Assembly (NCBI GenBank): GCA_041665345.1
Contig: JBAYJA010000001.1
Location: 265,206-329,205 of the forward strand
Origin: Patescibacteria group bacterium
Lineage (GTDB): Bacteria; Patescibacteriota; Patescibacteriia; PEXW01
DNA length: 64,000 nucleotides
Reading direction: 5' to 3'
Shown piece by piece: positions 2,613 to 30,924 of this stretch (position 1 is its first letter; every line of letters starts with the position of its first letter). Below the pieces are notes generated by a model that worked only from the letters and a program-made list of their open reading frames with translations, did not search any database and had not been told where the DNA came from. Position numbers and translations under genes: made by a program.

Positions 2613-2640
2613 TCAAAAAGCGTCCATGGACGCTTTTTGA
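2613..2640 (-). terminator. palindromic hairpin plus U-run immediately after the proposed tmRNA 3' end
   Basis: aaaaagcgtccatggacgcttttt is a perfect palindrome flanked by A/T runs. Confidence 0.5.
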
Positions 2641-3038
2641 GGTGGAGATGAGGGGTCTTGCACCCCTGTCTAGTTCACCGCTGTTCTACTGGTCGACAGG
2701 TTTGGGCCGTTCAAAGGTGGAGGCTGCAGCGCACGGAATGGCCAAGCTCGCTACAACCCGACCTTACGGAGTTCTCAGTTACCGCCAGTAAGGGTAACGG
2801 TAACCCAGCCTGGAGTATGGCACTCGCGATTCCCGCACCAGGCTGCGGGGCGAATGGGTTGTCGGTTTTTAGGCGACGACCGGAGCAAACTGAGGCGCGA
2901 ACGCGTTAGCGAACGCAACCTTCACTTTGCTGACAAAAGACGTGGCAGTTGTCAATTGTCCAACAGTTTTACGCCATGTTGAACGCGGGCGACCTGCACA
3001 GCAGAGGACGAGCAAACTATCAACTTCTGAACATCCCC
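2641..3038 (-). ncRNA. ssrA: tmRNA (ssrA), one-piece
   Basis: It lies immediately downstream of smpB on the same strand. The 5' GGGGAUG pairs with the 3' CAUCUCC-A-CC, giving a 7-bp acceptor stem with a G3:U70 wobble (alanine identity). The T-arm is AGGGG-UGCAAGA-CCCCU. An internal frame ends GCU AAC GCG UUC GCG CCU CAG UUU GCU CCG GUC GUC GCC UAA, giving the tag ANAFAPQFAPVVA. A terminator follows. The region has no credible protein ORF. Confidence 0.55.
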
Positions 3039-3185: not shown

Positions 3186-3638
3186 TTAACCTCTTTTTCG
3201 CATCGCCCTTGCCATATCGCGGTTCGTTTCTCGCTTCTTGATACTCGCGCGTTTGTCGTGCTCCTTCTTCCCACGCGCCAGACCCAAAGCGACTTTGACG
3301 AGTCCGCGGTTGGTGTAGATGCGCAAGGGGATGAGGGTGACGCCCGCGCTGCGCATTTTTCCAGTCAGCGAGGCAATTTCCTGGCGCTTCACCAGGAGCT
3401 GCCTGTCCCGGTCAGGCTGGTAGTGCACTTGCACGGCCGCTGCGGGTTTGTACGGCGCAATGTACGCATGCACCAGCCACAGTCCATTCTCCCGCAGTGA
3501 AACATAGGCTCCCTGGAGGTTCAGATTTCCAGTCTTTGCTGACTTCACTTCCGGGCCGGTGAGGGCAATGCCCGCATCCAAGGTTTCCAATACCTCGTAG
3601 TTGAAGCTAGCTTTCTTATTGGTGGCGAGTTTGGGCAT
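3186..3638 (-). CDS. smpB: SsrA-binding protein SmpB
   Basis: ...GIALTGPEVKS...LQGAYV... are conserved SmpB blocks. The start is placed at MPKLATNKK. Confidence 0.85.
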   Translation of the reverse strand: MPKLATNKKASFNYEVLETLDAGIALTGPEVKSAKTGNLNLQGAYVSLRENGLWLVHAYIAPYKPAAAVQVHYQPDRDRQLLVKRQEIASLTGKMRSAGVTLIPLRIYTNRGLVKVALGLARGKKEHDKRASIKKRETNRDMARAMRKRG

Positions 3639-3708
3639 GCAGACAGTATAGAGGAAAAGAGAAACCCGCGTCGTACCAGTGGCAGACGCGGGGTATTTGA
3701 AGGTTTGT

Positions 3709-4137
3709 TTAGGCGACAGTGGTTGCAAGCGGCCGTAGAAAAATGTACGTGTTTCGTTGTCGTTCTATGACCAGCTTGAAAGCCTGAGCATTTGGGGCTT
3801 CGTAGGCTAGACAGAAGATAATGAAGATATCTTGGTAGACCCGATTCTTCTGCTCGTCTATCAGACTACTCCTGCCGAGCGCTTCCAATTTTGCAGCAGT
3901 CATAATATGGAGTAGCGCGGCTACTTGCGCTGGTACTTCAGTACCTGGGTAGTAGAGATTCGGGCTGCTGATGTGTCCTACCGCTGCAGTTTGCAGAAGT
4001 GCCGGAATAATCCGTCGTATGTCGACTTCGGCTTCCGATCCGAGGAGCGCATCGGGCAGTGCCGCCTCACCAATTGTGCAATGGCCATGTGCTTCCAATT
4101 CGCGTCGCAGTTCTAAGAAGAATTGTGCATTTTTCAT
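3709..4137 (-). CDS. hypothetical protein
   Basis: ORF only. It is in the same frame as the upstream ORF, separated from it by a single TGA. Confidence 0.4.
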   Translation of the reverse strand: MKNAQFFLELRRELEAHGHCTIGEAALPDALLGSEAEVDIRRIIPALLQTAAVGHISSPNLYYPGTEVPAQVAALLHIMTAAKLEALGRSSLIDEQKNRVYQDIFIIFCLAYEAPNAQAFKLVIERQRNTYIFLRPLATTVA

Positions 4138-4686: not shown

Positions 4687-6321
4687 ATGCACATCCGATT
4701 CGAACTCCAGAAAATGCTCCAAGAACTTGTTGGGGCTGATGCCTTGAAGGTTAAGGTGGAACGTCCAAGTTCCGCTGAACATGGTGATTACGCAACTAGC
4801 ATCGCTTTAGCGTTGGGCAAGCAGCAGGGGATTGCGCCGCAGCAGGCCGCCAGCCAGCTGGTGGAAAAACTCAAAGCTCAGGCGCACCCAGCCATTGGCG
4901 ATATTTCCATTGCTGGGCCCGGGTTTATGAACTTGCGCTTGTCTGATGCGTGGCTTACTGCACAAGGCGTGGCAGCGGCCAAGAGCGTTGCTGGTCTGGG
5001 CAAGAGCATGTTACACAAAGGTGAGCACGCGCATTTGGAATTTATTTCGGCCAACCCCACTGGTCCGTTGACATTGGCCAATGCGCGTGGTGGCTTTTTG
5101 GGTGATGTCTTGGGGAATGTTCTGCAGCGCACAGGCTATAAGGTCGTTCGGGAATTTTACGTGAATGACCGGGGCAACCAGGTGGGCGTTTTGGCAGAGT
5201 CGGTGCTGCGGCGCTACTGGCAGCAGCAGGGGATTACCATTGACTACCCCGAGACGTGCTACCAAGGCGCGTACGTGGACGAGTTGGCGCGGAAGCTGAA
5301 GCTGGCAAATTATAGAATGACGGACGTGGCCAAGATCCACGAGATTCGGGACAAGATTAAAGACAAAGTCGTGGCAACGATGCTGAAGGAGATTCAGCGC
5401 GTGGTCACCAAGACCATGGGCATTACCTTTGATAACTGGCTATCTGAAAAAGCACTGGTTGCCTCCGGCGTACTGGACAAGTTGCTGGCAAAACTCAAAG
5501 ACCAGGGCATGATCTACGAAAAAGAAGGCGCCACCTGGTTGGCGACCACCAAGTACGGAGATGATAAAGATCGAGTCTTGGTGAAAGCGGATGGGGAAAT
5601 GGCGTACTTCTTACCGGACATTGCCAACCACTGGCTGAAGTTCACCAAGCATAAGGCAAATGTGGCCATCAACATCCTGGGTGCGGATCACCATGGGTAC
5701 GTGGCTCGCATGCGCGCCGCAATGCAGGGCTTGGGTTTTGACAATGCCGCGCATCAGTTTCACCCCATCATCATCCAATTCGTTCGCCTGCTGCAGGATG
5801 GCAAAGAAGTGAAGATGTCTAAGCGCCGGGGGACATACGTGGAAGCGGAAGAAGTGGTGGAAGAAGTTGGTTTGGACGCGGCGCGCTTCTTCTTCCTGAT
5901 GTACGACCCCAACACGCACCTGGATTTCAACCTGGACGCGGCCAAAGCGCAGAATGAGAAGAACCCGGTGTACTACGTGCAGTACGCGCATGCTCGTATG
6001 TGCAGCATCATCGCCAAGACCAAGGGTCTGCCCGTGGCAAAAACCCCGGTGGGGGTATTGCCAGCGTCAGCGCGCCGGCTTATACTCGAACTCCTCCGCT
6101 GGCCTGAGGTGCTGGAAGACGTGAGCCGCGATTACGGCGTGCAGCGCATTCCGCAGTACGCCCTGGATCTGGCGCGGACCTTCCACGATTTCTACACGAA
6201 TGTCCGGGTGATTGATAACGAACACGTCCAGAGCTTGCCGTTCACGCTGGTTCGCGGTACAAAGAATGTACTGGCAGATGTTCTGGACACGCTTGGCATC
6301 ACCGCGCCAGCGCACATGTAG
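4687..6321 (+). CDS. argS: arginyl-tRNA synthetase
   Basis: The class I block ISANPTGPLTLANARGG is present, and VQYAHAR plus the DALR anticodon-binding region are at the C-terminus. Confidence 0.9.
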   Translation: MHIRFELQKMLQELVGADALKVKVERPSSAEHGDYATSIALALGKQQGIAPQQAASQLVEKLKAQAHPAIGDISIAGPGFMNLRLSDAWLTAQGVAAAKSVAGLGKSMLHKGEHAHLEFISANPTGPLTLANARGGFLGDVLGNVLQRTGYKVVREFYVNDRGNQVGVLAESVLRRYWQQQGITIDYPETCYQGAYVDELARKLKLANYRMTDVAKIHEIRDKIKDKVVATMLKEIQRVVTKTMGITFDNWLSEKALVASGVLDKLLAKLKDQGMIYEKEGATWLATTKYGDDKDRVLVKADGEMAYFLPDIANHWLKFTKHKANVAINILGADHHGYVARMRAAMQGLGFDNAAHQFHPIIIQFVRLLQDGKEVKMSKRRGTYVEAEEVVEEVGLDAARFFFLMYDPNTHLDFNLDAAKAQNEKNPVYYVQYAHARMCSIIAKTKGLPVAKTPVGVLPASARRLILELLRWPEVLEDVSRDYGVQRIPQYALDLARTFHDFYTNVRVIDNEHVQSLPFTLVRGTKNVLADVLDTLGITAPAHM

Positions 6322-7940: not shown

Positions 7941-8423
7941 TTAGTATTCGTAGTGACTGAGCGGTTTAGGCGCTCGCAGTTTGTAGTACCGAGCGAGCTG
8001 TTCGTTGCGAGGGTTGTTGGAAAGCTCAGCATATGCCGCCAGGATTTTTTTCCAAGCTTCGGGTCCATGCTCTTCCAACGGATGGTGGTCGTCCCCCAGA
8101 CGCAGGAGTACATCGGGTTTCACGCCGAAGACAGGAGGGTGGTTGTAGATTATCAACGTAAAGCCATTGATTGGCCCAGTTGCCAGGAGCTCACATGGTA
8201 GTTCGTGCCGGGTTACTAACTCGCAGATGCATGTAAACTCATCAGGCTCCAGTTTTCGTTTCGCATCGCCATGATCCCAGAGGGACTTTTCAAGTTCTTG
8301 CATCCAGCGTTGTTCTGCCGCTGGGATTGGGAGGCGTGGGGTTGATTGCGTTGTCATAGGAAAGTACTCTCTTTCTGCTTTTGGTGTTTCCCACACCGTA
8401 GCGAAGGGGAAAGAAATCGTCAA
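7941..8423 (-). CDS. hypothetical protein; the start may be the internal Met 22 codons downstream
   Basis: ORF only. It is the last gene of a three-gene minus-strand unit. Confidence 0.4.
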   Translation of the reverse strand: MTISFPFATVWETPKAEREYFPMTTQSTPRLPIPAAEQRWMQELEKSLWDHGDAKRKLEPDEFTCICELVTRHELPCELLATGPINGFTLIIYNHPPVFGVKPDVLLRLGDDHHPLEEHGPEAWKKILAAYAELSNNPRNEQLARYYKLRAPKPLSHYEY

Positions 8424-8663: not shown

Positions 8664-9077
8664 TTATTCCTCCTTGGAGTTTTGTTGTTCAAATAGAGCA
8701 ATCTGCTCGGCCAGATCCTTACGCCAGTAGAGGATTCGGTGTTCATCCTCAAGCCCAACGACAAATTTCACGCCGGTGATAACCTTCATCAAACGAATCA
8801 CTGCCGCCTGTGCCTCCGGAGAAAAACCGAATACAACATTCGGCTTACCAGGTTCAGCGAATTGGATACAATCGTACACAGGGTTTTCTAGATTTGGATT
8901 GTCTCCAACGCACAGTTCAAGGGCCATACTATGCTTTGCGTAGTTGATGAAGTTAACCTGACTTAGGTTTTCCAGCGTGCACGGAAGTGTGTTCCGGGGT
9001 CCCATTTCAAACTCGACGGTGAGGGATTTAGTTCCACCAGTGCACCCATCGCTTGGGCATTGTTCTGACATATTCAC
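8664..9077 (-). CDS. hypothetical protein
   Basis: ORF only. It abuts the downstream zinc-ribbon ORF. Confidence 0.4.
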   Translation of the reverse strand: MNMSEQCPSDGCTGGTKSLTVEFEMGPRNTLPCTLENLSQVNFINYAKHSMALELCVGDNPNLENPVYDCIQFAEPGKPNVVFGFSPEAQAAVIRLMKVITGVKFVVGLEDEHRILYWRKDLAEQIALFEQQNSKEE

Positions 9078-9170
9078 TCCTTATGTGAAAGTTCAATTTC
9101 ATAGCACTGTAGCAGCTGATAAATTGTTCGTCAATGTGTGTGCGTAGCCCTTGCCAAAAAGTGATTTTTT

Positions 9171-12100
9171 TTGTACAGTACATTTTGCACTTGTCTTGCT
9201 ATGGCCAACGCAGCATCACCGCAGAAACCAGCGCAGCAACCCACGCCCTTCCCCGCAATGGAGGAAGAGGTTTTAGATTTGTGGGATAAGCAGCAGGTCT
9301 TCCAGAAAACCTTGGCGCAAACCAAAGCGGGGAAGCCTTTCGTCTTTTTTGAAGGGCCACCAACGGCGAATGGCAAGCCCGGCATTCACCATGTGCTGGC
9401 GCGTGTGTACAAAGACGTCATTGTCCGCTACCAGACTATGCGCGGCAGGTACGTGGAACGCAAGGCTGGCTGGGACACGCACGGTCTCCCAGTGGAATTG
9501 CAAGTGGAGAAGCAGCTGAAAATCTCTGGCAAGCAGCAGATTGAGAGTTTGGTTCCAGGTAATCCAACGGCCAGCATTGAGAAGTTCAACAATGCGTGCA
9601 AAGAGAGCGTGATGCAATTCCGGAATGACTTTGAAGTGCTCACCCGGCGGATTGGTTTTTGGCTGGACATGGCCAACCCCTACGTTACCTACGATCCAGC
9701 GTATATCGAAAGTGTCTGGTCCATTCTGAAAACCGTGTGGGACAAGCAGCTCATGTACAAAGGCCACAAAGTGGTGCCGCATTGCCCACGGTGTGAAACC
9801 ACACTGTCCAGCCACGAAGTAGCGCAGGGGTACAAGAGCGTGGTGGATACGTCTGTTTATGTGCAATACAAGGTACAGAGCAGTCCCAATGCAGAAATCC
9901 AAAAATGTATTGATGATAAGGACAATGTTTTCATTCTCTCCTGGACAACCACACCGTGGACGCTGCCTGGTAACGTTGCTCTGGCAGTTGGAAAAGCAAT
10001 CACCTACGTTTTGGTGAAGCACGATGGTGTGCTACGCATTGTCGCGAAAGACCGCCTAGTCGTTCTGGGTGAGGATGTGAAAGTCCAAGCGGAGTTTTCT
10101 GGCGAGAGTATGGTTGGCACCGTCTACGAGCCACTGTTTGCTGGGGCAGTCGACAAAGGTTCGTCCACCACTGCCTGGACGGTCTTGGCTGCAGATTTCG
10201 TCACCACCACGGACGGCACGGGCGTGGTACACACCGCCGTGATGTACGGTGAAGACGACTACCAACTTGGGAAAGCCATGGGTTTGCCCATGCAGCACAC
10301 GGTTGACCAGAGCGGAAAGTTTTTACCAACCGTTACCAAGTGGGCGGGAAGGTTTGTGAAGAGTAAAGACGTGGAAGCTGGGATTATCCAAGATCTGCAA
10401 GACCGGGGGTTACTGTTCCGCGCTGAACCGCACACGCACGACTACCCCTTCTGTTGGCGTTGCGATACGCCGCTGCTGTACTACGCGAAAGATAGCTGGT
10501 TCATTAAAATGTCTGCGTTGCGCGACCAGCTCCTGAAGAATAACGACGACATCACCTGGGTGCCGGGTCATTTGAAGCAAGGCCGGTTTGGGGAGTGGCT
10601 GCGTGAGGTGAAAGACTGGGCAATTTCTCGGGAACGGTACTGGGGCACGCCGCTGCCCATTTGGGAGTGCCAGCAGTGCAAGCACCAGGAAATGGTGGGC
10701 AGCTACGCTGACCTGCAAGCCAAGGCATCAACCTGGCCGTACTCTGCGCCCGAGCGCCAAATTTTTGTGATGCGCCACGGTGAGGCACAGGGTAATCTCA
10801 CCGGGACTGCACACACCTACATTGAAACCGATGTGAACGATCTGACCGACGCAGGAAAAGCACAGGCACGTGCCACCGCGGAAAAGCTCCACGGGAAAGT
10901 TGACCTCATTGTGACATCTGATTTTTTACGCGCAAAGCAAACTGCAGCGATGGTGAAGGAAATGCTGGGTGGTGATGTACAGGTCATTGAGGAACCTCGC
11001 TTGCGTGAAATCCAAGTGCATGAACATGAGGGAAAGCGCTGGGAAGCAATTTTTCAGCTGATGGGCGGAAATGTGGCGCGGGTAGATAAGCGGCATGGGA
11101 ATGCCGAAACCCTGCGGGAAGTTGCCATCCGCGTACGAGAAGCGGTGGATGCTTACCTCAACGCCTTTCCAGACAAGAGCATTCTCTTCATTTCGCATGG
11201 TGATCCACTGCTGGCTTTTGAATGGTTGCTGTCTGGCCAAGGTCCAGAGATGATTGAGCACCCAACCTACTTGAAAACGGGCGCGTACCGCGAAGTGACC
11301 GTCCACAGTATCCAACTGAATCCTCACCGACCATACATTGATGATGTGCAACTCGCCTGTCCAAAATGTCAGGGGACAATGGTTCGCATACCAGAAGTGA
11401 TTGACGTGTGGTTTGACGCCGGGTCTATGCCCTTTGCCCAGTGGCATTACCCCTTTGCAAACCAGGAGCGGGTTGACCAAGGCACGAACTTCCCGGCCGA
11501 GTACATTTCCGAAGGCATTGACCAGACACGCGGCTGGTTCTACACCCTGCTGGCTATTAGCACTTTGCTGGGCCGGGGCGCACCGTACCGCAACGTCATT
11601 TCCCTGGGGCATATCATGGACGCGAAGGGGAAGAAAATGTCCAAGTCCAAAGGCAACATTGTTGTGCCTGCAGCAGTGATTGACCAGTATGGCGCAGATG
11701 CGTTGCGGCTATACATGTTCACCATGAGCCAGGCCGGGGAGCCAAAGAACTTTGACGTACAGGGTGTGGATGAGGTAGTGAAGAAAACCTTGCTCATCTA
11801 CTGGAATGTGGTTACTTTTGCGACCACCTACGTGCCCAAGGAGCTGTGGGGGAATGCTGTCGCAGCACCAACCAATGTGCTGGATCAATGGGTGCTGGCC
11901 CGGCTGGGGCAGGTTACGCAGATAGTGACGGAAAAGTTGGAAGCCTTTGATCCAACTACCGCTGGCCGCGCCTTGCGAGATTTCATTACTGACCTTTCTA
12001 CCTGGTACCTCCGCCGCAGCCGCGATCGTTTGCGGCCAGGGGAAAGTTTCTCCACCGAAGCCGGGGCAACCCTCGTTTCGGTAATTCGCGCCACTGCGGT

Positions 12101-12743
12101 GTTGCTTGCGCCTTTTGCGCCGTTCATTGCGGAAAAAGTGTACCAGACCTTGCGGCAGGAAGCAGACCCCGAGAGCGTGCACCTGGTTCCGTGGCCTGCA
12201 GCGCAACCGTATGATGAAAAAGTGCTGACCAACATGACCCAGGTTCAGAAGATTGTTGAGCTGGGTCACGCCATTCGGAAAGAGCAGAATTTAAAAATCC
12301 GTCAGCCGCTGGCCACGTTGGGAACGTCGGTGCAACTTCCGGAGGCGTACCACGACATTCTCGCCAGTGAAATGAATGTGCTGCAGATCACGGCGGGCGT
12401 TGCGATACCCGCAGCCTTTGCTCAAAAAACTGCTGGTGAGGTAACCGTTGGTTTGGATACGCAGCTCACCGAAGAATTACAGCACCAAGGTCTGGTGCGT
12501 GAACTGGCGCGGCATGTGAATGATTTGCGAAAAACCGCCGGCTTCACCGTGCAGGACGTGGTGGATGTGGAATGGCAGACTGATGATGCAACACTCCAGC
12601 ACGCGTTCACTGAGCACGCCAAAGAACTGCAAGAGCTGACGCGCAGCAATACCATTCGCGCGGGTTCGGTAACCAACGTTGCGAGCAAGAAAGAGCTGCT
12701 CTTGGGTGGCGCGCGGGTAACCTTTGGCATTCGCAAGCCATGA
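9171..12743 (+). CDS. ileS: isoleucyl-tRNA synthetase, type 2 (eukaryote/archaea-like), carrying an inserted domain
   Basis: PPTANGKPGIHHVLARVYKDVIVRYQTMRGRYVERKAGWDTHGLPVE matches the type-2 IleRS HIGH region. KMSKSKGN is the KMSKS motif. A CxxC...CxxC knuckle is present. The real start may be M11 or M30. Confidence 0.9.
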   Translation: MYSTFCTCLAMANAASPQKPAQQPTPFPAMEEEVLDLWDKQQVFQKTLAQTKAGKPFVFFEGPPTANGKPGIHHVLARVYKDVIVRYQTMRGRYVERKAGWDTHGLPVELQVEKQLKISGKQQIESLVPGNPTASIEKFNNACKESVMQFRNDFEVLTRRIGFWLDMANPYVTYDPAYIESVWSILKTVWDKQLMYKGHKVVPHCPRCETTLSSHEVAQGYKSVVDTSVYVQYKVQSSPNAEIQKCIDDKDNVFILSWTTTPWTLPGNVALAVGKAITYVLVKHDGVLRIVAKDRLVVLGEDVKVQAEFSGESMVGTVYEPLFAGAVDKGSSTTAWTVLAADFVTTTDGTGVVHTAVMYGEDDYQLGKAMGLPMQHTVDQSGKFLPTVTKWAGRFVKSKDVEAGIIQDLQDRGLLFRAEPHTHDYPFCWRCDTPLLYYAKDSWFIKMSALRDQLLKNNDDITWVPGHLKQGRFGEWLREVKDWAISRERYWGTPLPIWECQQCKHQEMVGSYADLQAKASTWPYSAPERQIFVMRHGEAQGNLTGTAHTYIETDVNDLTDAGKAQARATAEKLHGKVDLIVTSDFLRAKQTAAMVKEMLGGDVQVIEEPRLREIQVHEHEGKRWEAIFQLMGGNVARVDKRHGNAETLREVAIRVREAVDAYLNAFPDKSILFISHGDPLLAFEWLLSGQGPEMIEHPTYLKTGAYREVTVHSIQLNPHRPYIDDVQLACPKCQGTMVRIPEVIDVWFDAGSMPFAQWHYPFANQERVDQGTNFPAEYISEGIDQTRGWFYTLLAISTLLGRGAPYRNVISLGHIMDAKGKKMSKSKGNIVVPAAVIDQYGADALRLYMFTMSQAGEPKNFDVQGVDEVVKKTLLIYWNVVTFATTYVPKELWGNAVAAPTNVLDQWVLARLGQVTQIVTEKLEAFDPTTAGRALRDFITDLSTWYLRRSRDRLRPGESFSTEAGATLVSVIRATAVLLAPFAPFIAEKVYQTLRQEADPESVHLVPWPAAQPYDEKVLTNMTQVQKIVELGHAIRKEQNLKIRQPLATLGTSVQLPEAYHDILASEMNVLQITAGVAIPAAFAQKTAGEVTVGLDTQLTEELQHQGLVRELARHVNDLRKTAGFTVQDVVDVEWQTDDATLQHAFTEHAKELQELTRSNTIRAGSVTNVASKKELLLGGARVTFGIRKP
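10755..11315 (+). other. histidine phosphatase (PGAM/SixA-like, RHG motif) domain inserted inside ileS
   Basis: VMRHGEAQGN...LTDAG..QA....KL....DLIVTSDFLRAKQTA...ISHGDPL gives RHG, the RAxQTA arginine and the second HG histidine in the right order. It sits exactly between the IleRS segments ...KASTWPYSAPE and LNPHRPYIDDVQLAC. Confidence 0.7.
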
Positions 12744-13501
12744 GCTTGGTGGATGTCCGCGGCGTGGTCCTGGGGCGGAAGGATGTTCGCGAAGACAGCC
12801 GGCTGTACACCATCTTCACCCAGGAGCGGGGCAAGGTGGAATTTTTTGGCCGTGGGATTCGGAAAGGGAAAGCCAAGTTGGGTGGGCACCTGGAACCTGG
12901 CGCAGTGGTTCGCTGCACCGTCGCACCCGGGAAAACTGGGGAGACCATCACGGCCGTGGAACGCTCGCACGCGCCAACCAGCGCGCAGCAGTCTTTGGCG
13001 CACGTGGCCAGTTTAACTTTTCTGCTTGGGGTTACTGACGCTATAACCAAACCCGAAGCGCCGGATGCGCCGCTCGCTTCATTCTTGGAAGAGGCGCTGA
13101 GCGCGTTGGAATCACTCCCCGTAACTCTAGCCCTACACGCACGTTTCCGCATGTGGGTGGCGTGGCACATTTTTTCCGCAGTTGGCGTGGTGCCAGACAC
13201 TACTCATTGCTCGCATTGCCGCAAACCCTTGGTGGGGGATGCGCGCTTTTCCAAGCACCATGGCGGGTGGGTAGGGCAGGAGTGCGCGAACCTGGACCCC
13301 ACAGCCTTTCCCGTGCCTGCCCAGGTGCGGGACTTCACCCATGCGCTCACGCGGGAGAGCTGGGCAATGATCGCTGATCAGAACATTACTCCCGTAATCG
13401 AAACAGACGCAGCACGCGTGACCCAAGCTGAGCTTCATCATGTCGCTGAGCGAGCCATTCCCGTGGAACGCTTCGTGGCTTTCACCCGGGCGCTGGGGTA
13501 A
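12740..13501 (+). CDS. recO: DNA repair protein RecO
   Basis: The N-terminus LYTIFTQERGKVEFFGRGIRKGKAK matches the RecO OB-fold and the C-terminus has a C4 zinc motif (CSHCRK...). Its ATGA overlaps the ileS stop. Confidence 0.8.
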   Translation: MSLVDVRGVVLGRKDVREDSRLYTIFTQERGKVEFFGRGIRKGKAKLGGHLEPGAVVRCTVAPGKTGETITAVERSHAPTSAQQSLAHVASLTFLLGVTDAITKPEAPDAPLASFLEEALSALESLPVTLALHARFRMWVAWHIFSAVGVVPDTTHCSHCRKPLVGDARFSKHHGGWVGQECANLDPTAFPVPAQVRDFTHALTRESWAMIADQNITPVIETDAARVTQAELHHVAERAIPVERFVAFTRALG

Positions 13502-13724: not shown

Positions 13725-14540
13725 ATGTTATTCCAACCAACCGTCACACTGCGGCTGAATTGCTGCCGTGGCAACCACAAAACCGGAGAAATCATTACCG
13801 CAGTTGATGACAACACCATTGTTGATTGGGAGAAGAATGAACTCTCCGTACCAAAGGAGCCCACAAATGCTTGGTGTGAGCAACGGGAAGGTACGAAAGA
13901 ATTTGTAATGATTCCAGTGTACTGCAAAAAGTGCAATGCCTGGACTATCCACTGGTACTCTTCTGTAGTCGGTGGAGGCACCTGGCAAACTGTGGAACCT
14001 CACTCGTACAAACGATCATTGCATTTCATGTATCGATCATCCACAGATGAGTGCATTAGTACGAAACTCAATCAGCCAGTCTCGGATCTGATGAATGTAA
14101 GTGCCGGGGGTTTCGAGTACCTTTTTGCGACAAATCCAAAGGATAATTGGTTCATCCTTCAGACCTATCAAACTCTTCTCCGCCATTTTTGTGTGTACGC
14201 AACAAGTATTTGGCCAAGATGGGCTTTGGAAAAATGGATTAGAGATGAAGAATCACGACGTTTCCCCAAAAGTTTGGAAATGCTGCAGAAGAATGATCGG
14301 CAAATTGTTGATTACCAGGCTCTGTCGAATGTCGTTTTTGAGTGCGTTGTTGAATTACACCGGCTGCAAGGGAGCATTCAATCACCAACAATTGCGGAGG
14401 TGCGGAAGCGGTTGCAGACCGTGTTAGTTAAGGCTGATGGAGGGTTTGTCACTCAGCTTTCAATGGCAAATGTGCCATTCGTTAGTGCAACCCCAGTGCA
14501 GGTTGTGAAATTGCCTGCAGAACAGGCTGACGAGAAGTAG
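13725..14540 (+). CDS. hypothetical protein (low-GC ORFan)
   Basis: ORF with about 46% GC against about 56% in the flanks. No motif recognised. Confidence 0.45.
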   Translation: MLFQPTVTLRLNCCRGNHKTGEIITAVDDNTIVDWEKNELSVPKEPTNAWCEQREGTKEFVMIPVYCKKCNAWTIHWYSSVVGGGTWQTVEPHSYKRSLHFMYRSSTDECISTKLNQPVSDLMNVSAGGFEYLFATNPKDNWFILQTYQTLLRHFCVYATSIWPRWALEKWIRDEESRRFPKSLEMLQKNDRQIVDYQALSNVVFECVVELHRLQGSIQSPTIAEVRKRLQTVLVKADGGFVTQLSMANVPFVSATPVQVVKLPAEQADEK

Positions 14541-14571: not shown

Positions 14572-16698
14572 ATGCAGTCCCGGTTTTTCTTTTCCGAATC
14601 CCGGTTTTTCGCTATACTGCATGGCACTATGGCAAAACCGAAGGCAAGCACAGCAAAGCGCGTCCCAATCCGAAAATTGAAGTCTGCCGAACCAGACGAA
14701 TTGCCAGAAAAGCTGGAAGTTGATGCAGCTGACGAAGCGCAGGAGGGTACAACCCCTGTGCATGCGGAGGCTCAGCCGGATGAGGATGTGGAGGCTGATG
14801 ACGAGCAAGACGAAGCCCCAGTGCGTATGCGCGGGGATGTTTTGGATGCCATTTACAAACCTGTGCCAGGTGACGACGATGACGAAGAGGAATCGTCACA
14901 GGATCTAAAAAAAGCCATGCCAAAGTCCAAGAAGAAGCGCCGGCTGATTATTCTCTTCGTCGTGCTTGGGATCCTGGCCGGTGCAACGTTGGCCGGGTAT
15001 TTAGTTTTCCGTTCTTCGTCACGGTTCAGTGAGCGAGTGCAGCTCACGGCGAAAGCCCCAGCAGGCATTGCCGCTGGCGATGAGGTTTCCGTTGTGGTCA
15101 CGGTTACCAATGAAGAGCAGATTGCTTTGCAGAATGCGGAGCTCACGCTCACCCCGCCAGAAGGCTTCACCTTTGCCTCTAGCCAGCCTGCTGCTTCAAA
15201 CGAATTCAACAATGCTTGGCACCTGGGAACGTTGCAGAAATCAGCCGGCACTACCGTAACGGTGAAGGGCCGCTTGGTGGGCGAGCAAGACCAGGAGAAA
15301 GTGTTTCGGTTTACCTTGGGCTACCGGCCGTCCAACTTCAACTACGATTTCCAAAAAAATCTGGAAGTGACGGTACGCATCAGCAGTTCCGTGCTGCAAC
15401 TGCAGCCCGATGTGCCGCTCCGGGTTACCCCTGGGGTGCAGACCCAAATCCCCATCGTGGTTCTGAACACGGGTTCAGCAGCGCTGGAAGACATCCGCCT
15501 AGTCGTGGAGTATCCCAGTAGCTTCACCTTTGGCAGTGCTACGCCCAAGCCAAGCCGGGAAGAAAATATTTGGGACATTGCCAGTATTCCAGCGAAAGGC
15601 CAAACGAAGATTACGGTTACCGGAGTCATCCAAGGAAATGTTGGCGATACTCCCGAATTCAAATTCCGCGCTGGCCGGGTGCTCACCGGCGAGTTGCAGG
15701 TGCAGGCTGAGGCGAGCGGGATTGGTACGTTGGTGCAGCCTGGCTTGCAAGTCACCCTCAATGTGACCAACCCAGGTGGCGGCACCGTACTGTCGTGGGG
15801 TGACATGCTGAACCTCTCTATTAGTTACAAAAATGAAAGCGAGAGCAACATGCAAGACGTGACCATTGTTGCAGAGCTGCGGGAGAAGAATGGCGGCGGG
15901 AAAGATGTAAAGATTTTTGAACTCGACGATCGATCCGATGTGCAGAAGGGGACGCTGTCTGGCCGCACGTTGACGTGGACGAAAGCCCAAGTGCCTGGTT
16001 TGGCAAAAATTGAACCAGGGAAGGGTGGCGACATTCTCCTCCGTCTCCCGGTTCGTTCCGGGCCGGACATTACGGAACAAGGCGACAAGAACTTTACCTC
16101 CACCATTGCGGTTCGGGCGTCCGTAGGCAGCATGGATGATGTGACGGGTAAGAATTTTGAAACCCAGGCCAAACCCTTGGAAACCAAGTTTTCCACCAAG
16201 CTCAACGTGGAACCGGAGGGGAGGTACTACAGTGATGAGCAGGTACCCATTGGTGCCGGACCACTGCCACCGCAGGTTGGCAAAGAGACGACGTACGAAA
16301 TGAGCTGGACCTTGACCAACGCCACCAATGAAACCACGCAAATTGTGGTAAGCGCAACGTTGCCAGATGCAGTGGTATGGACTGGCGTACAGAGTGTTAC
16401 TGCGGGCCAAGCAGTGACGTTTGATCCGACGACGCGGGAAGTGAGCTGGCGGGTGAACCGGGTGCCACCAGGCACTGGGAGTTTGTTCGCCAGTCTGGAA
16501 GCGAAGTTTCAGGTGAAAGTCACCCCAGTTGCCACGGATGTGGGCAAGCTCCTGTCCTTGCTTGGGCAAACTGTTGCCACAGCGCGGGACGAGTTTACGA
16601 CCCAAGATTTGCGGGTGGAAAAAGCGATCATCACCAGCGATTTACCAGGTGACGTTGCCGCGCAGGGCAAGGGGTTAGTTGTCGAAGCAACGCCGTAG
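14572..16698 (+). CDS. large membrane-anchored surface protein with repeated beta-sandwich (DUF11/CARDB-like) modules
   Basis: An acidic N-terminus, one TM helix (RLIILFVVLGILAGATLAGYLVF), then about 550 aa of repeated V/T/G-rich modules. The probable start is the MAKPK codon at 14629. Confidence 0.55.
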   Translation: MQSRFFFSESRFFAILHGTMAKPKASTAKRVPIRKLKSAEPDELPEKLEVDAADEAQEGTTPVHAEAQPDEDVEADDEQDEAPVRMRGDVLDAIYKPVPGDDDDEEESSQDLKKAMPKSKKKRRLIILFVVLGILAGATLAGYLVFRSSSRFSERVQLTAKAPAGIAAGDEVSVVVTVTNEEQIALQNAELTLTPPEGFTFASSQPAASNEFNNAWHLGTLQKSAGTTVTVKGRLVGEQDQEKVFRFTLGYRPSNFNYDFQKNLEVTVRISSSVLQLQPDVPLRVTPGVQTQIPIVVLNTGSAALEDIRLVVEYPSSFTFGSATPKPSREENIWDIASIPAKGQTKITVTGVIQGNVGDTPEFKFRAGRVLTGELQVQAEASGIGTLVQPGLQVTLNVTNPGGGTVLSWGDMLNLSISYKNESESNMQDVTIVAELREKNGGGKDVKIFELDDRSDVQKGTLSGRTLTWTKAQVPGLAKIEPGKGGDILLRLPVRSGPDITEQGDKNFTSTIAVRASVGSMDDVTGKNFETQAKPLETKFSTKLNVEPEGRYYSDEQVPIGAGPLPPQVGKETTYEMSWTLTNATNETTQIVVSATLPDAVVWTGVQSVTAGQAVTFDPTTREVSWRVNRVPPGTGSLFASLEAKFQVKVTPVATDVGKLLSLLGQTVATARDEFTTQDLRVEKAIITSDLPGDVAAQGKGLVVEATP

Positions 16699-16701
16699 GA
16701 T

Positions 16702-18753
16702 ATGTCTGTGAAGCGATACAAACTCTACCTCGCTTCAGGAATTCGGTTGTGGACCATGTACTTTCAAAAGGCGTACACACCCTTTTTTAATCGAAAAGTT
16801 GATCTCTTTCAACCGGCATTGATTGATAAACAGTATACTGGTGATCATCGGAATATTCCCATTCGGATAGCAACGAAAGATCTGGGGGAAATTAATGCTT
16901 GTGATGCAATTTTGGCGTACATGAAGATGTACGATACCCAGGATAACGGACCAGCTGGGACGGATAGCACTTGGGAGTGTGGGTATGCTATTGGTAAGGA
17001 AAAACCTACCATTATGATAGTTGAGGACATTCAGCACTTAGACTACTACTCAGCGCAGTGGATGGTGACTTTTAGCATCGGAGCAATCTTGACAACGGAT
17101 AAACAAGTCGCTGAACAAGCGAAAAATCACGATAAGTTTACACACACGACAATACTCTATTGTGACTCAAAAGCGCAGTTTGAGAAGAAAATCATTGCGT
17201 ACCTTGATCAGTACTACAAGTCCATCTACGCGCGGGAGGGGATAATAAACTACTCGGTTGATCAAGAGCTTCGGGCGTACAGCCAGCAATCGTATATTTC
17301 GGGAATCCTTTCTAAGTGTCACACCACAGCATTTTCAAGTTTTGGGGCTGATGCAGAAATATTTGAAAAACAATTTTGCGCGCTCTACGGCCAAAAGAAA
17401 TTCAAGGCGAATACTGCAACCTATCAGGCCGTATGTAACCACGAAATAGAACGCGCGAGGATTGTACAAAAAATTATAAGAAATGATGTTAAAGATGTGG
17501 TGCCATTTTTACAAACTTATATTCGCCAGGCCATACAAAGTCTTGAGGGGAAACCAAGCATCAATAAGGTTGCACAAATGATTTCTTACTGGCTGCAAAT
17601 CCCAGCGGAAGCAGTCAAAGGCCACAAGCAGGGAAGGAAGAAAACTCGACCTGCTATCTTTTTTGAACTTCACGATTTGGTTAGTCATCACGTAGTAGCG
17701 ACAGATCGCTACTTTGGTGAGCACTTCGTTTACCAGGCTGGTGCGGTGTTGGAGGTATACAATTGGCTGAACACGTACGCCATTGATGATGTATTCGATA
17801 ATTCCCGCACGCGACAAGGGCAGTTGACGTTACATGAAAAGTATAATAGTCGAAAAAATGCCATCCTACTCGGAAGTATTGGGCACTGCCTTTCACTTAT
17901 TTTGCTGCATGGATTGACAAAAGAGAAACCCGTTGTCGCTATGTCTCTCCTCCGCGCCCTCAACGATGTGCAGTTTGTCATGTACCATGGTCAGCAGCTT
18001 GACCTACGCTTAAGTTTTTCCTCTCCGAAGTCCCTTCAAACATATCTACGCGGCCATTCCTTGCATTCCGCAATGGAGGATTATTTTTCTCGTATTTATG
18101 GGATTTGCGGTTCATTTTATGAAGAGATTGGCCGAATGGCAATGCGGTCAACAAACGTGGGGGCGCAATTTTATAACCAGAAAGCTGCGGAGGACGCATG
18201 CATTACTATTGCAAAATACTTCGGCTTAGTACAAATGATCCGGAATGACTTAGGTGATTTACTCCTACCCGAAGACCTTTCAGGAATGAGTAAAGGTATG
18301 AAAGATACCTCCCATAATGATGTCATGGAAGGGAAGTTGACGCTGCCTATATTGTATACATTGCTCAATAAACGGACCACGAGCAAAGACCGGAATATTT
18401 TCATTCATCTCATAGGAAAGCAACATTTGACGGCAAAGAATCGGAAAGATATTAGCCGAATCATTTGGGAAAGCGGCGCTATCGAATACTGCCTGCAGTT
18501 TGTTGCATACTACGCAAAGCAGGTGCGCGAGCAGTATGTAAAGCATATCCATGAAACTCCAACACGGTTAAAGTGGATTCTCAAACTTATGGATGTTACA
18601 CCTTTAATAAACGTCACCTTTCGTCGAATAGCTATTACTAACGGTTGGCGAAAACTAGAACTTGAGCCCCTCGCGTCGGAGTACCTGTTGAAAATTGAAA
18701 AGTTGACTACCCGTGAGGCGTTCTTAGCGGCTTTTTCTCGTAAGAGAAGCTAA
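16702..18753 (+). CDS. fusion protein: N-terminal nucleoside 2-deoxyribosyltransferase-like domain plus C-terminal trans-isoprenyl diphosphate synthase-like domain with a degenerate second Asp-rich motif
   Basis: NDT-like blocks: YLASG...PFFNRK and GTDSTWECGYAIGKEKPTIMIVED, the catalytic Glu block (compare NDT ...GMELGYA...K.V....P). Isoprenyl-diphosphate-synthase blocks: QGRKKTRPA, IDDVFDNSRTRQG (FARM), GQQLD, VQMIRNDLGD (SARM with DD changed to RN), MEGKLTLPILY. GC is about 42-45%. Confidence 0.6.
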   Translation: MSVKRYKLYLASGIRLWTMYFQKAYTPFFNRKVDLFQPALIDKQYTGDHRNIPIRIATKDLGEINACDAILAYMKMYDTQDNGPAGTDSTWECGYAIGKEKPTIMIVEDIQHLDYYSAQWMVTFSIGAILTTDKQVAEQAKNHDKFTHTTILYCDSKAQFEKKIIAYLDQYYKSIYAREGIINYSVDQELRAYSQQSYISGILSKCHTTAFSSFGADAEIFEKQFCALYGQKKFKANTATYQAVCNHEIERARIVQKIIRNDVKDVVPFLQTYIRQAIQSLEGKPSINKVAQMISYWLQIPAEAVKGHKQGRKKTRPAIFFELHDLVSHHVVATDRYFGEHFVYQAGAVLEVYNWLNTYAIDDVFDNSRTRQGQLTLHEKYNSRKNAILLGSIGHCLSLILLHGLTKEKPVVAMSLLRALNDVQFVMYHGQQLDLRLSFSSPKSLQTYLRGHSLHSAMEDYFSRIYGICGSFYEEIGRMAMRSTNVGAQFYNQKAAEDACITIAKYFGLVQMIRNDLGDLLLPEDLSGMSKGMKDTSHNDVMEGKLTLPILYTLLNKRTTSKDRNIFIHLIGKQHLTAKNRKDISRIIWESGAIEYCLQFVAYYAKQVREQYVKHIHETPTRLKWILKLMDVTPLINVTFRRIAITNGWRKLELEPLASEYLLKIEKLTTREAFLAAFSRKRS

Positions 18754-18874: not shown

Positions 18875-19447
18875 ATGAAGGAAAAGATCATTTCCAACTT
18901 CGTACCCTTCCCTCAGTGTCCGTACACCGACGCCCCCTATGTGCTGTGGTTTTTTGCACAACGGTATCTGCAAGTGCAGCATCACGTGCCTGAGTACTAC
19001 CTGTACAAGTGCGAGCTCGAGCGAGATTACATTAGCGGCCTATTTCAATTGCAGCAGGCTTGCTTGCGCGCAGAAGCGGTGAGTACAGACGATATTCTTT
19101 TTCAGGAAGCGGGTACTATTGCGCAGCATATTCTTGCAACGAGTAGTTTTAAGGATTTTCGGGGTAGGAGACAGCGTTACACCAGGCGGTTTTGGCGAGC
19201 TACTGAGCGATTACTAGCAATTACCGAATACCTGCAGATCCCCATACAATTGCAGGACATACGGTCTCATCAGTGGCTCATCGTTGCCAATTTTGCACAT
19301 GCCGCAGGGCTTCAAGGATCAGCATTCTTACGCTACGTGCAAAGATTTGGCGAAGAAGCAATTCAACGTCTGGTTATTCATAACGCAGGAGACCTATACT
19401 CCACGGTTATGCGGGAACGGGACACAAATGCAAGAGTACGTTGGTAG
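18875..19447 (+). CDS. hypothetical protein
   Basis: ORF only. It is in the same lower-GC patch as the fusion gene. Confidence 0.4.
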   Translation: MKEKIISNFVPFPQCPYTDAPYVLWFFAQRYLQVQHHVPEYYLYKCELERDYISGLFQLQQACLRAEAVSTDDILFQEAGTIAQHILATSSFKDFRGRRQRYTRRFWRATERLLAITEYLQIPIQLQDIRSHQWLIVANFAHAAGLQGSAFLRYVQRFGEEAIQRLVIHNAGDLYSTVMRERDTNARVRW

Positions 19448-24741: not shown

Positions 24742-24836
24742 CGGGAATTAGTTCAGTCGGTAGAACGCTCTTTGCTCGCATCGATTGAGAGCTTTACGAG
24801 CACGGAGAGGTCACAGGTTCAAGTCCTGTATTCCCG
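24742..24836 (+). tRNA. tRNA-like element (type II-like, 95 nt) with an expanded anticodon-loop region. It may be a pseudo-tRNA or a tRNA with a short insertion.
   Basis: Acceptor CGGGAAT/ATTCCCG, D-arm GTTC-AGTCGGTA-GAAC and T-arm ACAGG-TTCAAGT-CCTGT are all canonical. The anticodon stem GCTCT/AGAGC encloses a 14-nt loop and the variable region is about 21 nt. No clean 7-nt anticodon loop is found. Confidence 0.4.
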
Positions 24837-24845
24837 AAAAAAATT

Positions 24846-29267: not shown

Positions 29268-29648
29268 ATGGAGTTTTGGATATTTGGCAACCCAGATCTA
29301 CCCCAGGACAGTACGCCCATTCACCTCATGCCCAGGCTGCGAGCAGCATTTCCGGAGCACACCTTTGTGCTCAAAGACCCGTTGGATGAGTGGGAACCCA
29401 TGCCCGAGCATTTGCGCGTCATAGACACTATTGTAGGGCTGTACGACGTGAACGAGTACACGGACTTGGAAGGGTTTGCCCAGGCGCCATCCGTCACCAT
29501 GCACGACTTTGATGCATTGTCCCAGCTCCGTTTTTTGCAGAAGCTTGGCAAGCTAAAAAAAATCACGCTCTACGGCGTGCCCGATACGTTGACCGAAGAT
29601 CAAGCCTTTAGTCAGCTGGAAATGCGGCTCCGACAACTTTCAGTTTAA
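29268..29648 (+). CDS. putative hydrogenase maturation endopeptidase (HycI/HybD-like)
   Basis: MEFWIFGNPDLPQDSTPIHLMPRL resembles the N-terminus of maturation proteases (..LGIGN.L..D.G.G..). Size and genomic context fit. The metal ligands are not confirmed. Confidence 0.4.
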   Translation: MEFWIFGNPDLPQDSTPIHLMPRLRAAFPEHTFVLKDPLDEWEPMPEHLRVIDTIVGLYDVNEYTDLEGFAQAPSVTMHDFDALSQLRFLQKLGKLKKITLYGVPDTLTEDQAFSQLEMRLRQLSV

Positions 29649-30924
29649 GGAAGTGCGAGGCGCAGCTCATGCACGGGTCATACGCCCGAATGATTTTTTC
29701 TAGTTCCAGCTGCACCTTTTCCGCATTAGGGTTTTCCGGCAGAAGCTCTTCCAAGCGGCGCGCCATGTCTTGCTCAATGTTGACTTGGTTTTGGCCCGTG
29801 GGCACCACAATTTCGCCGTCGGTCACCACATCTTTTTCATCAATGGTCACTTTGTGGTAAAGCGTGCCGCGCGGTGCTTCAATGACGCCCACGCCCGTCC
29901 CGCTCTTCTTGGTTGGTTGGACGAGTGGCTCTTTGGTGAATTTTGTGGTCTCCAGCATTTCAATGGACTGATCCACGCAGTGCAGCAGCTCAATGGCCTG
30001 CGCCAGGTTGTTGTGGAAAATGTTGGTGGAAGGAAATTTTGCCAAGGTGTGCGGTATGCTGTCCTTCACTTTCTGGTGCAGGTTGTCTTTGGCCAAGTTG
30101 ATGCGCGCCAAGGCGCCCACCATGTACGCTTTGCCTTTGTACTCGTAGCCAGAGGCTTGGGAGTAGGGGATGACCACATGCTCCAGGTGCTCGCGGAACT
30201 GCGCTTCAGAAATGCGCTCCGGTGACTGATCGCTGACAATTTCTCCGTCCAGGAAACTGAAAGGATTTGCCACCAAAGCCATGAAATGGGTTTTGCGGTC
30301 AAAAGTGAAGTCGCACTTTTCAAACCGTTCAATAGTACGCAGCACGGCTGGGCGAATGCCTTTGAGTTTTTTTACCGCCTCAGCCACTTCTTCCGATGTG
30401 GGGACTTTCAGGAACCCGCCAATCATGGGGTTAATGGCGTGCACGCTTCGGCCGGCAATGATAATCGCCAGGTAATTCCCCGCGGCTTTGATATCAAACG
30501 CGTCGTGGAGAATTTGGTGCTGCTCCGGGTCATTCTCGTCAAAGGACAGGAAGGAATCTTTGCCAAACATGTCCGGCATGGCAAAGAGGTAGAGATGGAG
30601 CGCGTGGTCACGAATGTTCAGCCCATTCATGGTCAAATGCTTCATTGTTATGCTCTGCTTACTGGGGGTAATTCCCAAGGCATGTTCACAGGCCTCGATA
30701 CTGCAGAGCAGGTGGGCGTTGGAGCAGGTGCCGCAAATGCGCGCCAGCAAGGCGGGTAGGCCGCGGTAGGGCTTGCCGCGCATGGCCTGGGTGTAGAAGC
30801 GTTTGTACTCGGTAATGCCAAAGCGACACTTCTCCACTTTGCCGTTCTTCACTTCCACGTCCAAAGTGGCAGCACCTTCCACCTTGGTGATCTCCTTCGT
30901 CATGGACAGGTCAACGGTGTGCAT
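29608..30924 (-). CDS. [NiFe] hydrogenase large subunit
   Basis: The N-terminal RICGTCSNAH (RxCGxCxxxH) and C-terminal DPCMSCASH (DPCxxCxxH) nickel-binding motifs are present. At 438 aa the size is typical of group 3/4 enzymes. Confidence 0.85.
   Translation of the reverse strand: MHTVDLSMTKEITKVEGAATLDVEVKNGKVEKCRFGITEYKRFYTQAMRGKPYRGLPALLARICGTCSNAHLLCSIEACEHALGITPSKQSITMKHLTMNGLNIRDHALHLYLFAMPDMFGKDSFLSFDENDPEQHQILHDAFDIKAAGNYLAIIIAGRSVHAINPMIGGFLKVPTSEEVAEAVKKLKGIRPAVLRTIERFEKCDFTFDRKTHFMALVANPFSFLDGEIVSDQSPERISEAQFREHLEHVVIPYSQASGYEYKGKAYMVGALARINLAKDNLHQKVKDSIPHTLAKFPSTNIFHNNLAQAIELLHCVDQSIEMLETTKFTKEPLVQPTKKSGTGVGVIEAPRGTLYHKVTIDEKDVVTDGEIVVPTGQNQVNIEQDMARRLEELLPENPNAEKVQLELEKIIRAYDPCMSCASHFLKLKVVGAAFPAD

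Follow-up and report, generated by a model that had tools for sequence, protein, structure and literature searches.

A histidine phosphatase domain nested in the zinc knuckle of isoleucyl-tRNA synthetase is common in Patescibacteria and has split equivalents beside ileS

To characterize an unusual isoleucyl-tRNA synthetase (IleRS), we analyzed a 64,000-nucleotide stretch of DNA (the window) from a Patescibacteria group bacterium (GTDB lineage Bacteria; Patescibacteriota; Patescibacteriia; PEXW01), which covers positions 265,206 to 329,205 of contig JBAYJA010000001.1 in GenBank assembly GCA_041665345.1. The ileS gene of the window encodes a type-2 IleRS in which a histidine phosphatase (HP) domain is nested within the zinc knuckle of the third connective peptide (CP3), a surface loop of the catalytic core. 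This nested phosphatase is a family trait common within Patescibacteria, not a peculiarity of one genome, and in related lineages the same clade of phosphatase is encoded by a separate gene that overlaps ileS. Counting both forms, the phosphatase accompanies IleRS in hundreds of related species. Judged from these arrangements, the phosphatase is probably no passenger but a dedicated partner of IleRS, whether nested in it or present as a separate subunit. Here, we describe the synthetase and its insert, then the distribution and alternative arrangements of the phosphatase, and finally the readings that could account for them.

The features of ileS are listed below. Residues are numbered from the TTG at 9171, which opens the longest open reading frame (ORF; 9171..12743, plus strand, 1190 amino acids [aa]); numbering from the ATG at 9201 is lower by 10.

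9151..9179, plus strand: promoter-like site TTGCCA-17-TACAGT, upstream of ATG 9201 and overlapping TTG 9171 (consensus match only)
9201..12743, plus strand: ileS, type-2 isoleucyl-tRNA synthetase with nested phosphatase, 1180 aa from ATG 9201
9381..9392, plus strand: GIHH, aa 71-74, a non-canonical G-x-H-H form of the class I HIGH signature (motif reading)
9945..9962, plus strand: TTTPWT, editing-domain (CP1) motif, intact (motif reading)
10215..10232, plus strand: GTGVVH, editing motif, intact (motif reading)
10668..10679, plus strand: CQQC (C500, C503), first half of the CP3 zinc knuckle (motif reading)
10734..11315, plus strand: inserted segment, aa 522-715 (194 aa), in place of a linker of about 5 residues (alignment to structure 8c8w)
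10761..11270, plus strand: core of the Pfam His_Phos_1 domain (profile match)
10773..10781, plus strand: R535-H536-G537 (RHG), with H536 the predicted phospho-accepting nucleophile (conservation, alignment to structures)
10794..10796, plus strand: N542, predicted phosphate-pocket residue (conservation)
10929..10931, plus strand: R587, predicted second phosphate-pocket Arg, in the motif SDFLRAKQTA (conservation; invariant in alignment A1)
11007..11009, plus strand: E613, predicted general acid/base, in the motif LREIQ (conservation)
11196..11198, plus strand: H676, predicted second catalytic His, in the motif SHGDPL, aa 675-680 (conservation, alignment A1)
11358..11369, plus strand: CPKC (C730, C733), second half of the CP3 zinc knuckle (motif reading and family alignment)
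11634..11648, plus strand: KMSKS class I signature loop, aa 822-826, intact (motif reading)

The ATG at 9201 is probably the true start of ileS rather than the TTG at 9171, because its product matches the NCBI protein MFA6473511.1 at 100% and because the promoter-like site overlaps the TTG. As for that site, the region around the ileS start is overall not enriched in promoter-like matches relative to shuffled sequence.

The host protein was classed as a type-2 IleRS in the initial annotation, which was made from the letters of the window, and the profile and structure comparisons bear this out. The ileS equivalog TIGR00392 scores 866.8 bits against a cutoff of 621.4, in two stretches parted by the insert, and outside the insert the protein aligns over its full length with the Priestia megaterium IleRS2 structure 8c8w (phmmer, E=1e-247). 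Pfam identifies tRNA-synt_1 (E=3e-116), Anticodon_1, and, at the C-terminus, PF19302 (DUF5915), while His_Phos_1 (aa 531-700) falls between the two halves of the catalytic domain; the product also matches the editing-domain structures 1wk8 and 1udz. The protein is not a MupA or MupB by the NCBIfam models (738.5 and 758 bits, respectively, against cutoffs of 1900), nor does it belong to NF040702, the family of IleRS with an N-acetyltransferase (GNAT) domain (317.6 bits against a cutoff of 1999). TTTPWT and GTGVVH, which we take to be the IleRS editing motifs, are both present. Among readable family members, the class I signature reads GxHH in 47, HxGH in 13, and AIHH in 1, and the insert-free IleRSs at the split loci described below have GVHH or GLHH. 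G/AxHH is a functional IleRS2 signature variant that confers mupirocin hyper-resistance (PMC10485003). Altogether, the host looks like a complete, fully functional IleRS2 of the housekeeping type, because KMSKS, the editing motifs, and the knuckle cysteines are intact and GIHH is an active variant.

CP3 is the subdomain that follows CP2 and precedes the second half of the Rossmann fold; its topology varies among IleRSs, and in Thermus thermophilus it binds zinc (PMC7191050). In the window enzyme, the insert sits between the CQQC and CPKC halves of the CP3 knuckle, whose residue C500 (C490 in ATG numbering) is near-invariant in the family alignment. The phmmer alignment to 8c8w breaks into two blocks, query aa 30-521 pairing with residues 13-480 and aa 716-1072 with residues 486-846, and the insert boundaries read ...KAST|WPYSAPE... 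and ...VHSIQ|LNPHRPY. An insertion of 187 aa at 10755-11315, placed cleanly in the zinc-knuckle region, had been proposed initially; the location and the C-terminal boundary stand, and the start moves seven codons earlier, to 10734, which gives 194 aa. G+C content across the insert equals that of its flanks.

By profile, the insert is a complete HP of branch 1 of the superfamily. Taken alone, it matches PF00300 at E=1.5e-30, with 106.8 bits against a cutoff of 21.7, over profile positions 1-171 of 194. The initial annotation had placed the insert in this superfamily on the strength of four motifs, all of which are present: RHGE (aa 535-538), LTDAG (aa 558-562), RAKQTA (aa 587-592), and SHGDPL. 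It had omitted E613 and N542. Its catalytic His and Arg residues are also correctly aligned. R535, H536, R587, and H676 align with those of solved PhoE, GpgP, and PGM-family structures and are invariant in alignment A1; among 122 nested copies, R535 is conserved in 96%, H536 in 95%, G537 in 89%, N542 in 84%, R587 in 99%, E613 in 88%, and H676 in 100%, so that both His and both Arg lie between 95 and 100%. E613 is conserved in 99% of free copies. R535, R587, N542, and H676 are predicted to form the phosphate pocket, with H536 forming the phospho-histidine and E613 acting as general acid. Because these residues are kept at only about 30-35% overall identity between copies, the conservation points clearly to purifying selection on the catalytic residues.

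None of the NCBIfam specificities fits the insert. It falls below the equivalog cutoffs for CobC (TIGR03162, 66.6 vs. 162.9 bits; PRK15004, 35.2 vs. 250), for cofactor-dependent phosphoglycerate mutase, dPGM (archaeal NF038349, 64.4 vs. 225; TIGR01258, 16.5 vs. 81.7; PRK14115, 17.1 vs. 305), and for SixA (TIGR00249, 37.5 vs. 74.5 bits, in the N-terminal half only). The residue after the second His gives HGD and not the mutase-type HGN. By these comparisons, the insert is a phosphatase-type member of the superfamily that reaches no NCBIfam equivalog specificity.

Structure models agree with the profile assignment. The AlphaFold2 model of the insert, built from a 33-sequence alignment, has a predicted local distance difference test (pLDDT) score of 95 and a predicted template modeling score (pTM) of 0.91. 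Foldseek superposes it on PhoE 1h2e with a template modeling (TM) score of 0.80 and a root-mean-square deviation of 2.7 Å, and gives probability 1.00 to PhoE, CobC, GpgP, and dPGM structures; a riboflavin-pathway phosphatase was also matched. In the model, the HP fold occupies the whole insert and carries a PhoE-like cap, unlike the open site of SixA. The full-length AlphaFold model (pLDDT 89.5, pTM 0.79) loses confidence only at the two junctions (residues 515-517 and approximately 700-710 in ATG numbering), as would be expected of a folded module on short linkers.

The nested form is found well beyond the window. The 1180-aa product is identical, residue for residue, to MFA6473511.1 (our P0181), which is encoded on a 1,075,605-bp contig and named [quoted passage not shown] by NCBI. 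The same protein is also present in JGI/IMG, Logan, and ENA, and a variant with one mismatch comes from a second assembly. To see the family, we needed an exhaustive HMMER search, in which the insert with 30-aa flanks was compared with 1.84 billion representative proteins. Word-indexed searching showed less: started from the insert alone, it brought up few relatives and a single fused fragment, and with a profile of 33 nested domains, its best 120 matches were all free-standing proteins, which served to find the split forms. The exhaustive search gave 3878 matches with E<=1e-3, of which 223 reached E<=1e-10. Among the 150 top matches, about 110 are IleRSs or contig-truncated fragments of them, with flanks and insert matched as one stretch at the same position, and more than 100 representative protein clusters carry the nested domain. 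The same junctions recur in hundreds of orthologues, with identities of 30-47%.

A scan of GTDB species representatives for the motif I[LA]x[VI]SHGDPL, with the SHGDPL-subset profile A2, yielded 412 confirmed loci; this census is biased to SHGDPL and misses the ValRS-type copies, which read THGD. Among the best 80 of these 412 loci, 76 have the phosphatase nested in IleRS at the same site and 4 have it as a free gene. Nearly all records are labelled as Patescibacteria, also called the Candidate Phyla Radiation (CPR), under labels that include Parcubacteria, Paceibacterota, Minisyncoccia, Kaiser-, Colwell-, Niyogi-, Uhr-, Nealson-, Vogel-, Doudna-, Sung-, Terry-, and Liptonbacteria, and the records include a complete 1.17-Mb chromosome (CP129476.1). 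Some CPR-type HP-IleRS records carry odd labels such as "Candidatus Binatia," "Acutalibacteraceae," and "uncultured Gammaproteobacteria" (L014, L023, L031, L034, L044, and also L053, L055, L059, L064, L076). These may be placeholder labels, labelling errors, or mis-binned contigs. The architecture had been called unusual in the initial annotation, which holds for aminoacyl-tRNA synthetases in general; within Patescibacteria, as the survey of related IleRSs shows, it is common.

IleRS is not the only synthetase that hosts this phosphatase. P0111, a full-length valyl-tRNA synthetase (ValRS; valS 1018 bits), has its HP (aa 452-626) flanked by the PVWY and DTLDTWFSSG anchors, a site that is the CP3-equivalent segment. 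P0177 is another HP-bearing ValRS, and P0042, a contig-truncated ValRS of 1161 aa, has four copies. Five IleRSs of 1379-1468 aa (P0083, P0112, P0145, P0165, and P0167) have a second copy or a copy at another site, arranged in tandem, after the WFDSG strand, or at the junction with the anticodon-binding domain. The R-H-N-R-E-H set is kept in nearly every complete copy, with a few single substitutions in P0042, P0130, and P0165.

The genes of the closest free-standing relatives directly precede a type-2 ileS that lacks the insert, and their stop codons overlap its start (ATGA or 7-10 nt). Such split pairs are found at L001 (P0190), L058, L070, L072, and L095/L096 (P0174), and the gene order there matches the synteny of the window: SmpB - ArgRS - HP - IleRS - (small ORF) - RecO - DUF11/DUF7619. 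In the window itself, two minus-strand ORFs (7941-8423 and 8664-9077) lie between a glycosyltransferase gene and ileS, where the split-form relatives have the free HP gene. At L004, the HP (P0192) is encoded on the ileS strand, about 2 kb before that gene, and the insert-free IleRS of this locus is 47% identical to the window enzyme, compared with 44% for insert-bearing relatives. At L091/L092, the start of a gene for a TsaC/Sua5-HP fusion overlaps the stop (TGATG) of an ileS without the insert, in a neighborhood that includes a CCA-adding enzyme and TGT. For the split, TsaC-fused, and ValRS copies alike, IleRS-nested copies are among the nearest relatives, and split forms are up to 53% identical to nested copies, which is above the typical level between two nested copies. 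No locus of 96 has both a nested and a separate HP. In hosts of at least 900 aa, 155 of 156 HP domains are internal and none is N-terminal; the single apparently C-terminal case is contig-truncated, which leaves no end-to-end HP-IleRS fusion among the 156.

Two further kinds of fusion were recorded. The TsaC/Sua5(YrdC)-HP fusions lie at L091 5001-6179 and L094 977-2140 (P0010, P0114), and in them the phosphatase takes the place held by the SUA5 domain in Sua5-type enzymes. QueH-HP fusions of 365 aa (P0253/P0281; PF02677, epoxyqueuosine reductase) were considered as another pairing with a tRNA enzyme and dropped, as their HP lacks the clade motif (it reads THSA); these may be unrelated.

One clade of phosphatase thus accompanies ileS in four ways: it is nested in CP3, encoded by a separate overlapping gene, encoded about 2 kb upstream, or fused to TsaC/Sua5 in a gene that starts at the ileS stop codon. 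It is because of these arrangements, together with the CP3-equivalent site in ValRS, that we regard the phosphatase as a probable dedicated partner of the synthetase. That N-terminal fusion is absent, though the loss of a single stop codon would suffice to produce it, suggests that it is important where on the synthetase the domain sits. On balance, we also favor the view that the insert works together with IleRS as an accessory, catalytically active phosphatase. The strongest clues to function come from the split operonic, ValRS, TsaC-fused, and multi-copy versions, which lay outside the view of the initial annotation.

What the phosphatase would act on is a more tentative matter. Our leading guess, which we put forward as a possibility and no more, is a terminal phosphomonoester on the tRNA acceptor end or on a nucleotide-like ligand. 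The synthetase would present the ligand, the likeliest being a tRNA acceptor end whose 2'- or 3'-phosphate would otherwise prevent charging; from there the phosphate would move to His536 and then to water. The HP would in this way be a third active site within reach of the flexible CCA end, beside the synthetic and editing sites. In its full form, the proposal is that the nested domain is a tRNA-end phosphatase that strips a 2'- or 3'-phosphate from tRNA-Ile or tRNA-Val while the tRNA is held, coupling repair to charging, with the split phosphatase of related lineages as a trans-acting subunit. We consider this full form doubtful. The initial annotation had speculated on a phosphorylated nucleotide or tRNA-end intermediate as substrate, a suggestion that would fit the genomic context. 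The partners IleRS, ValRS, TsaC, and, in one case, SmpB share tRNA or tRNA-like acceptor arms. The SmpB case is a free HP gene in Peregrinibacteria (P0214, L009 5001-5570), whose end coincides with the start of smpB and not of ileS, in a translationally coupled pair. Free operonic HPs are as basic as the SmpB of the same genomes, nested copies are near neutral, and the net charge of the TsaC-HP protein is +28, among neighbors that are otherwise neutral. Basic free HPs would fit a need for RNA affinity of their own only when untethered, a weak argument that base composition confounds.

Several observations weigh against a dedicated role in tRNA metabolism. The charge signal is partly compositional, as the proteomes concerned are low-GC and basic, and the unlinked free HP of L004 is acidic. 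The second TsaC-HP fusion (P0114) was tried as a further ileS-linked case and rejected, since its upstream gene encodes a membrane protein. In the literature searched, we found no HP that acts on RNA ends, only a reference-list citation. The closest structures to the insert are all small-molecule phosphatases or mutases, a free relative (P0198) adjoins genes for G6PD-6PGD and PGI in a sugar-phosphate context, and conserved gene order in compact CPR genomes, which keep translation genes in fixed order, can persist without a functional link. Finally, in the mycobacterial fusion of RNase HI with an HP (RnhC), the domains are functionally dissociated in vivo and the HP has B12- and pigment-related roles.

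The last four of these points are also what speaks for the strongest rival explanation, in which a metabolic phosphatase of the PhoE/CobC/GpgP type sits beside or within ileS for co-expression or by drift and acts on an unrelated metabolite: the top profile matches, like the structural ones, are metabolite phosphatases, and the pentose-phosphate and glycolysis genes beside P0198 suit such a role. Against it, nesting within the core at one CP3 site in two different synthetases would be a costly route to co-expression, and four independent arrangements hold one clade with ileS. There is also no end-to-end fusion despite the overlapping stop and start codons, and the nested and split forms are mutually exclusive. 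We think this explanation unlikely, though about as probable as the tRNA-end guess and kept alive by the RnhC precedent, and we keep to the reading of a dedicated partner.

A second alternative is that the phosphatase destroys pyrophosphate (PPi), adenosine monophosphate (AMP), or a related nucleotide near the active site, pulling amino acid activation forward. This HP clade is partnered with three enzymes that share adenylate chemistry, IleRS, ValRS, and TsaC/Sua5: each makes an acyl-adenylate, with PPi and AMP as the released products. Relatives of the CobC type act on a nucleotide-like 5'-phosphate, and extra copies would increase local activity. However, pyrophosphatase activity is not known from branch-1 HPs, and hydrolysis of AMP would be wasteful for a nucleotide scavenger. 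Moreover, the MetRS, ArgRS, and class II synthetase encoded in the window are without an HP (no other HP was found in its 64 kb), and the pairing of HP with smpB involves no adenylate chemistry. Removal of a by-product is a rather improbable role.

It is more improbable still that the domain is a regulatory module, either a sensor of a phospho-metabolite that tunes IleRS or a protein phosphatase that acts in cis against HipA/HipT-like kinases. CP3 runs straight into the WFDAG active-site strand, so that a conformational change could be transmitted, and there is a weak match to the SixA model in the N-terminal half. SixA, PGAM5, and Sts-1 are protein phosphatases of this superfamily. Yet no kinase or signaling gene is linked at any locus examined, the SixA score lies under its cutoff, the model predicts a PhoE-like cap instead of the open SixA site, and the multi-copy variants are hard to square with a sensor.

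The only points in favor of an arrangement that is not real (a chimeric assembly, a mobile insertion such as an intein, or a spacer that is a decayed pseudo-enzyme) are general ones: some domains nested in essential enzymes are inteins, and bins from metagenomes may be chimeras. Such an origin is extremely improbable, and we reject the intein, chimera, and recent-horizontal-insertion readings: the identical protein occurs in four independent collections and with one mismatch in another assembly, which excludes an assembly artefact; hundreds of orthologues share identical junctions and base composition is uniform; the insert has no boundary Cys/Ser/Thr set, no Hint fold, and no Hint or intein match in Pfam, and the HP fold fills it; and its catalytic residues are clearly under purifying selection. 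The initial annotation had likewise argued against an intein, and had named an assembly artefact among the things that would undo its claim.

The neighborhood of ileS in the window is that of a conserved block, SmpB-ArgRS-[HP]-IleRS-RecO-DUF11, with the following members:

2640..3038, minus strand: transfer-messenger RNA (tmRNA) gene, beside smpB
3186..3728, minus strand: smpB, in the same block, adjoining the tmRNA gene
4687..6321, plus strand: argS (ArgRS), upstream member of the block
12740..13501, plus strand: recO, member of the block, its ATG overlapping the ileS stop codon (ATGA)
14572..16698, plus strand: gene for a DUF11-domain protein, downstream member of the block

The ATGA overlap is a predicted sign of translational coupling between ileS and recO, and IleRS and RecO are adjacent in 25 of the best 80 related loci. 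Near ileS, the ORFs 7941-8423 (minus), 8664-9077 (minus), 13725-14540 (plus), and 18875-19447 (plus) have no Pfam match.

Three other features of the window were noted in passing. The gene for tRNA-Ala(CGC) at 24742-24837 (plus strand, 96 nt) has an anticodon arm of 34 nt, against 11 expected by Rfam, and so contains an intron-like insertion of about 23 nt, which is unusual for a bacterial tRNA. If this insertion were removed by cleavage and ligation, phosphorylated RNA ends would arise. At 16702-18753 (plus strand), a protein of 683 aa has a nucleoside 2-deoxyribosyltransferase-like domain (aa 30-114) joined to a polyprenyl synthetase domain (aa 310-579), an odd fusion. The ORF at 29608-30924 (minus strand) matches the large subunit of NiFe-hydrogenase (PF00374), in what is apparently a small Patescibacteria genome.

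Full-text searches of open-access papers and bioRxiv returned no paper on an IleRS, or any other tRNA synthetase, with an HP domain. Broad surveys of IleRS evolution and structure (bioRxiv 10.64898/2026.02.03.703510; PMC10485003) mention no such insertion, no phosphatase, and no Patescibacteria, and a paper on host defence against Patescibacteria gave no relevant synthetase-targeting toxin. Precomputed Pfam annotation of public sequences already shows PF00133 together with PF00300, and the synthetase type and the enzyme fold are each known; what is new is a conserved, undescribed arrangement with split equivalents, which generic public names such as "class I tRNA ligase family protein" hide from readers of annotation. 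The nested modules known from aminoacyl-tRNA synthetases, such as editing domains, serve the fidelity of charging, and an active phosphatase would add an undescribed function in translation, in a lineage with minimal genomes that is very hard to study genetically. If the tRNA-end reading were true, it would be the first RNA-end healing in the HP superfamily and a new kind of synthetase proofreading. Even if the domain is a passenger, it would be a striking natural case of a class Ia synthetase that accommodates one or more guests of 190 aa in its CP3 loop, which is useful for synthetase engineering.

Compared with known systems, the host is an ordinary IleRS2. It has the same domain order, editing domain, KMSKS loop, and type-2 C-terminus as the enzymes of P. 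megaterium (8c8u/8c8w) and T. thermophilus (1ile), and its CP3 zinc knuckle resembles that of T. thermophilus IleRS (PMC7191050). The difference lies in the knuckle loop: about 5 residues long in the reference enzymes, it holds an enzyme domain of 194 aa in the window enzyme. That domain, in turn, has the fold, the R-H-(N)-R-E-H set, and the size (approximately 190-200 aa) of PhoE/CobC/GpgP-type phosphatases (PF00300); it differs from them in reading HGDPL(W) after the catalytic His, where mutases have HGN and many phosphatases HGG, and in being nested in, or operonic with, a tRNA synthetase.

The only studied case that we found of a branch-1 HP joined to a nucleic-acid enzyme is mycobacterial RnhC (Rv2228c/MSMEG_4305), an RNase HI with a CobC-like acid phosphatase, and the RnhC-type model NF005567 is among the better NCBIfam matches of the insert (57.6 bits). 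RnhC is an end-to-end fusion with a variable linker and is confined to Actinomycetales. Unlike it, the window-type domain is nested in the core of its host, is found again in a paralogous synthetase, and has a translationally coupled split form as its alternative. The IleRSs of NF040702 provide a curated precedent for an unrelated enzyme embedded in this synthetase, the guest there being a GNAT. Other insertion modules of class Ia synthetases, namely the CP1 editing domain, the leucine-specific domain of LeuRS, and the ARD2 INS of IleRS2, are likewise nested and modulate tRNA handling or catalysis (bioRxiv 10.64898/2026.02.03.703510). These modules are synthetase-specific folds that never occur free, whereas the phosphatase of the window is an autonomous fold that is also found as a free protein.

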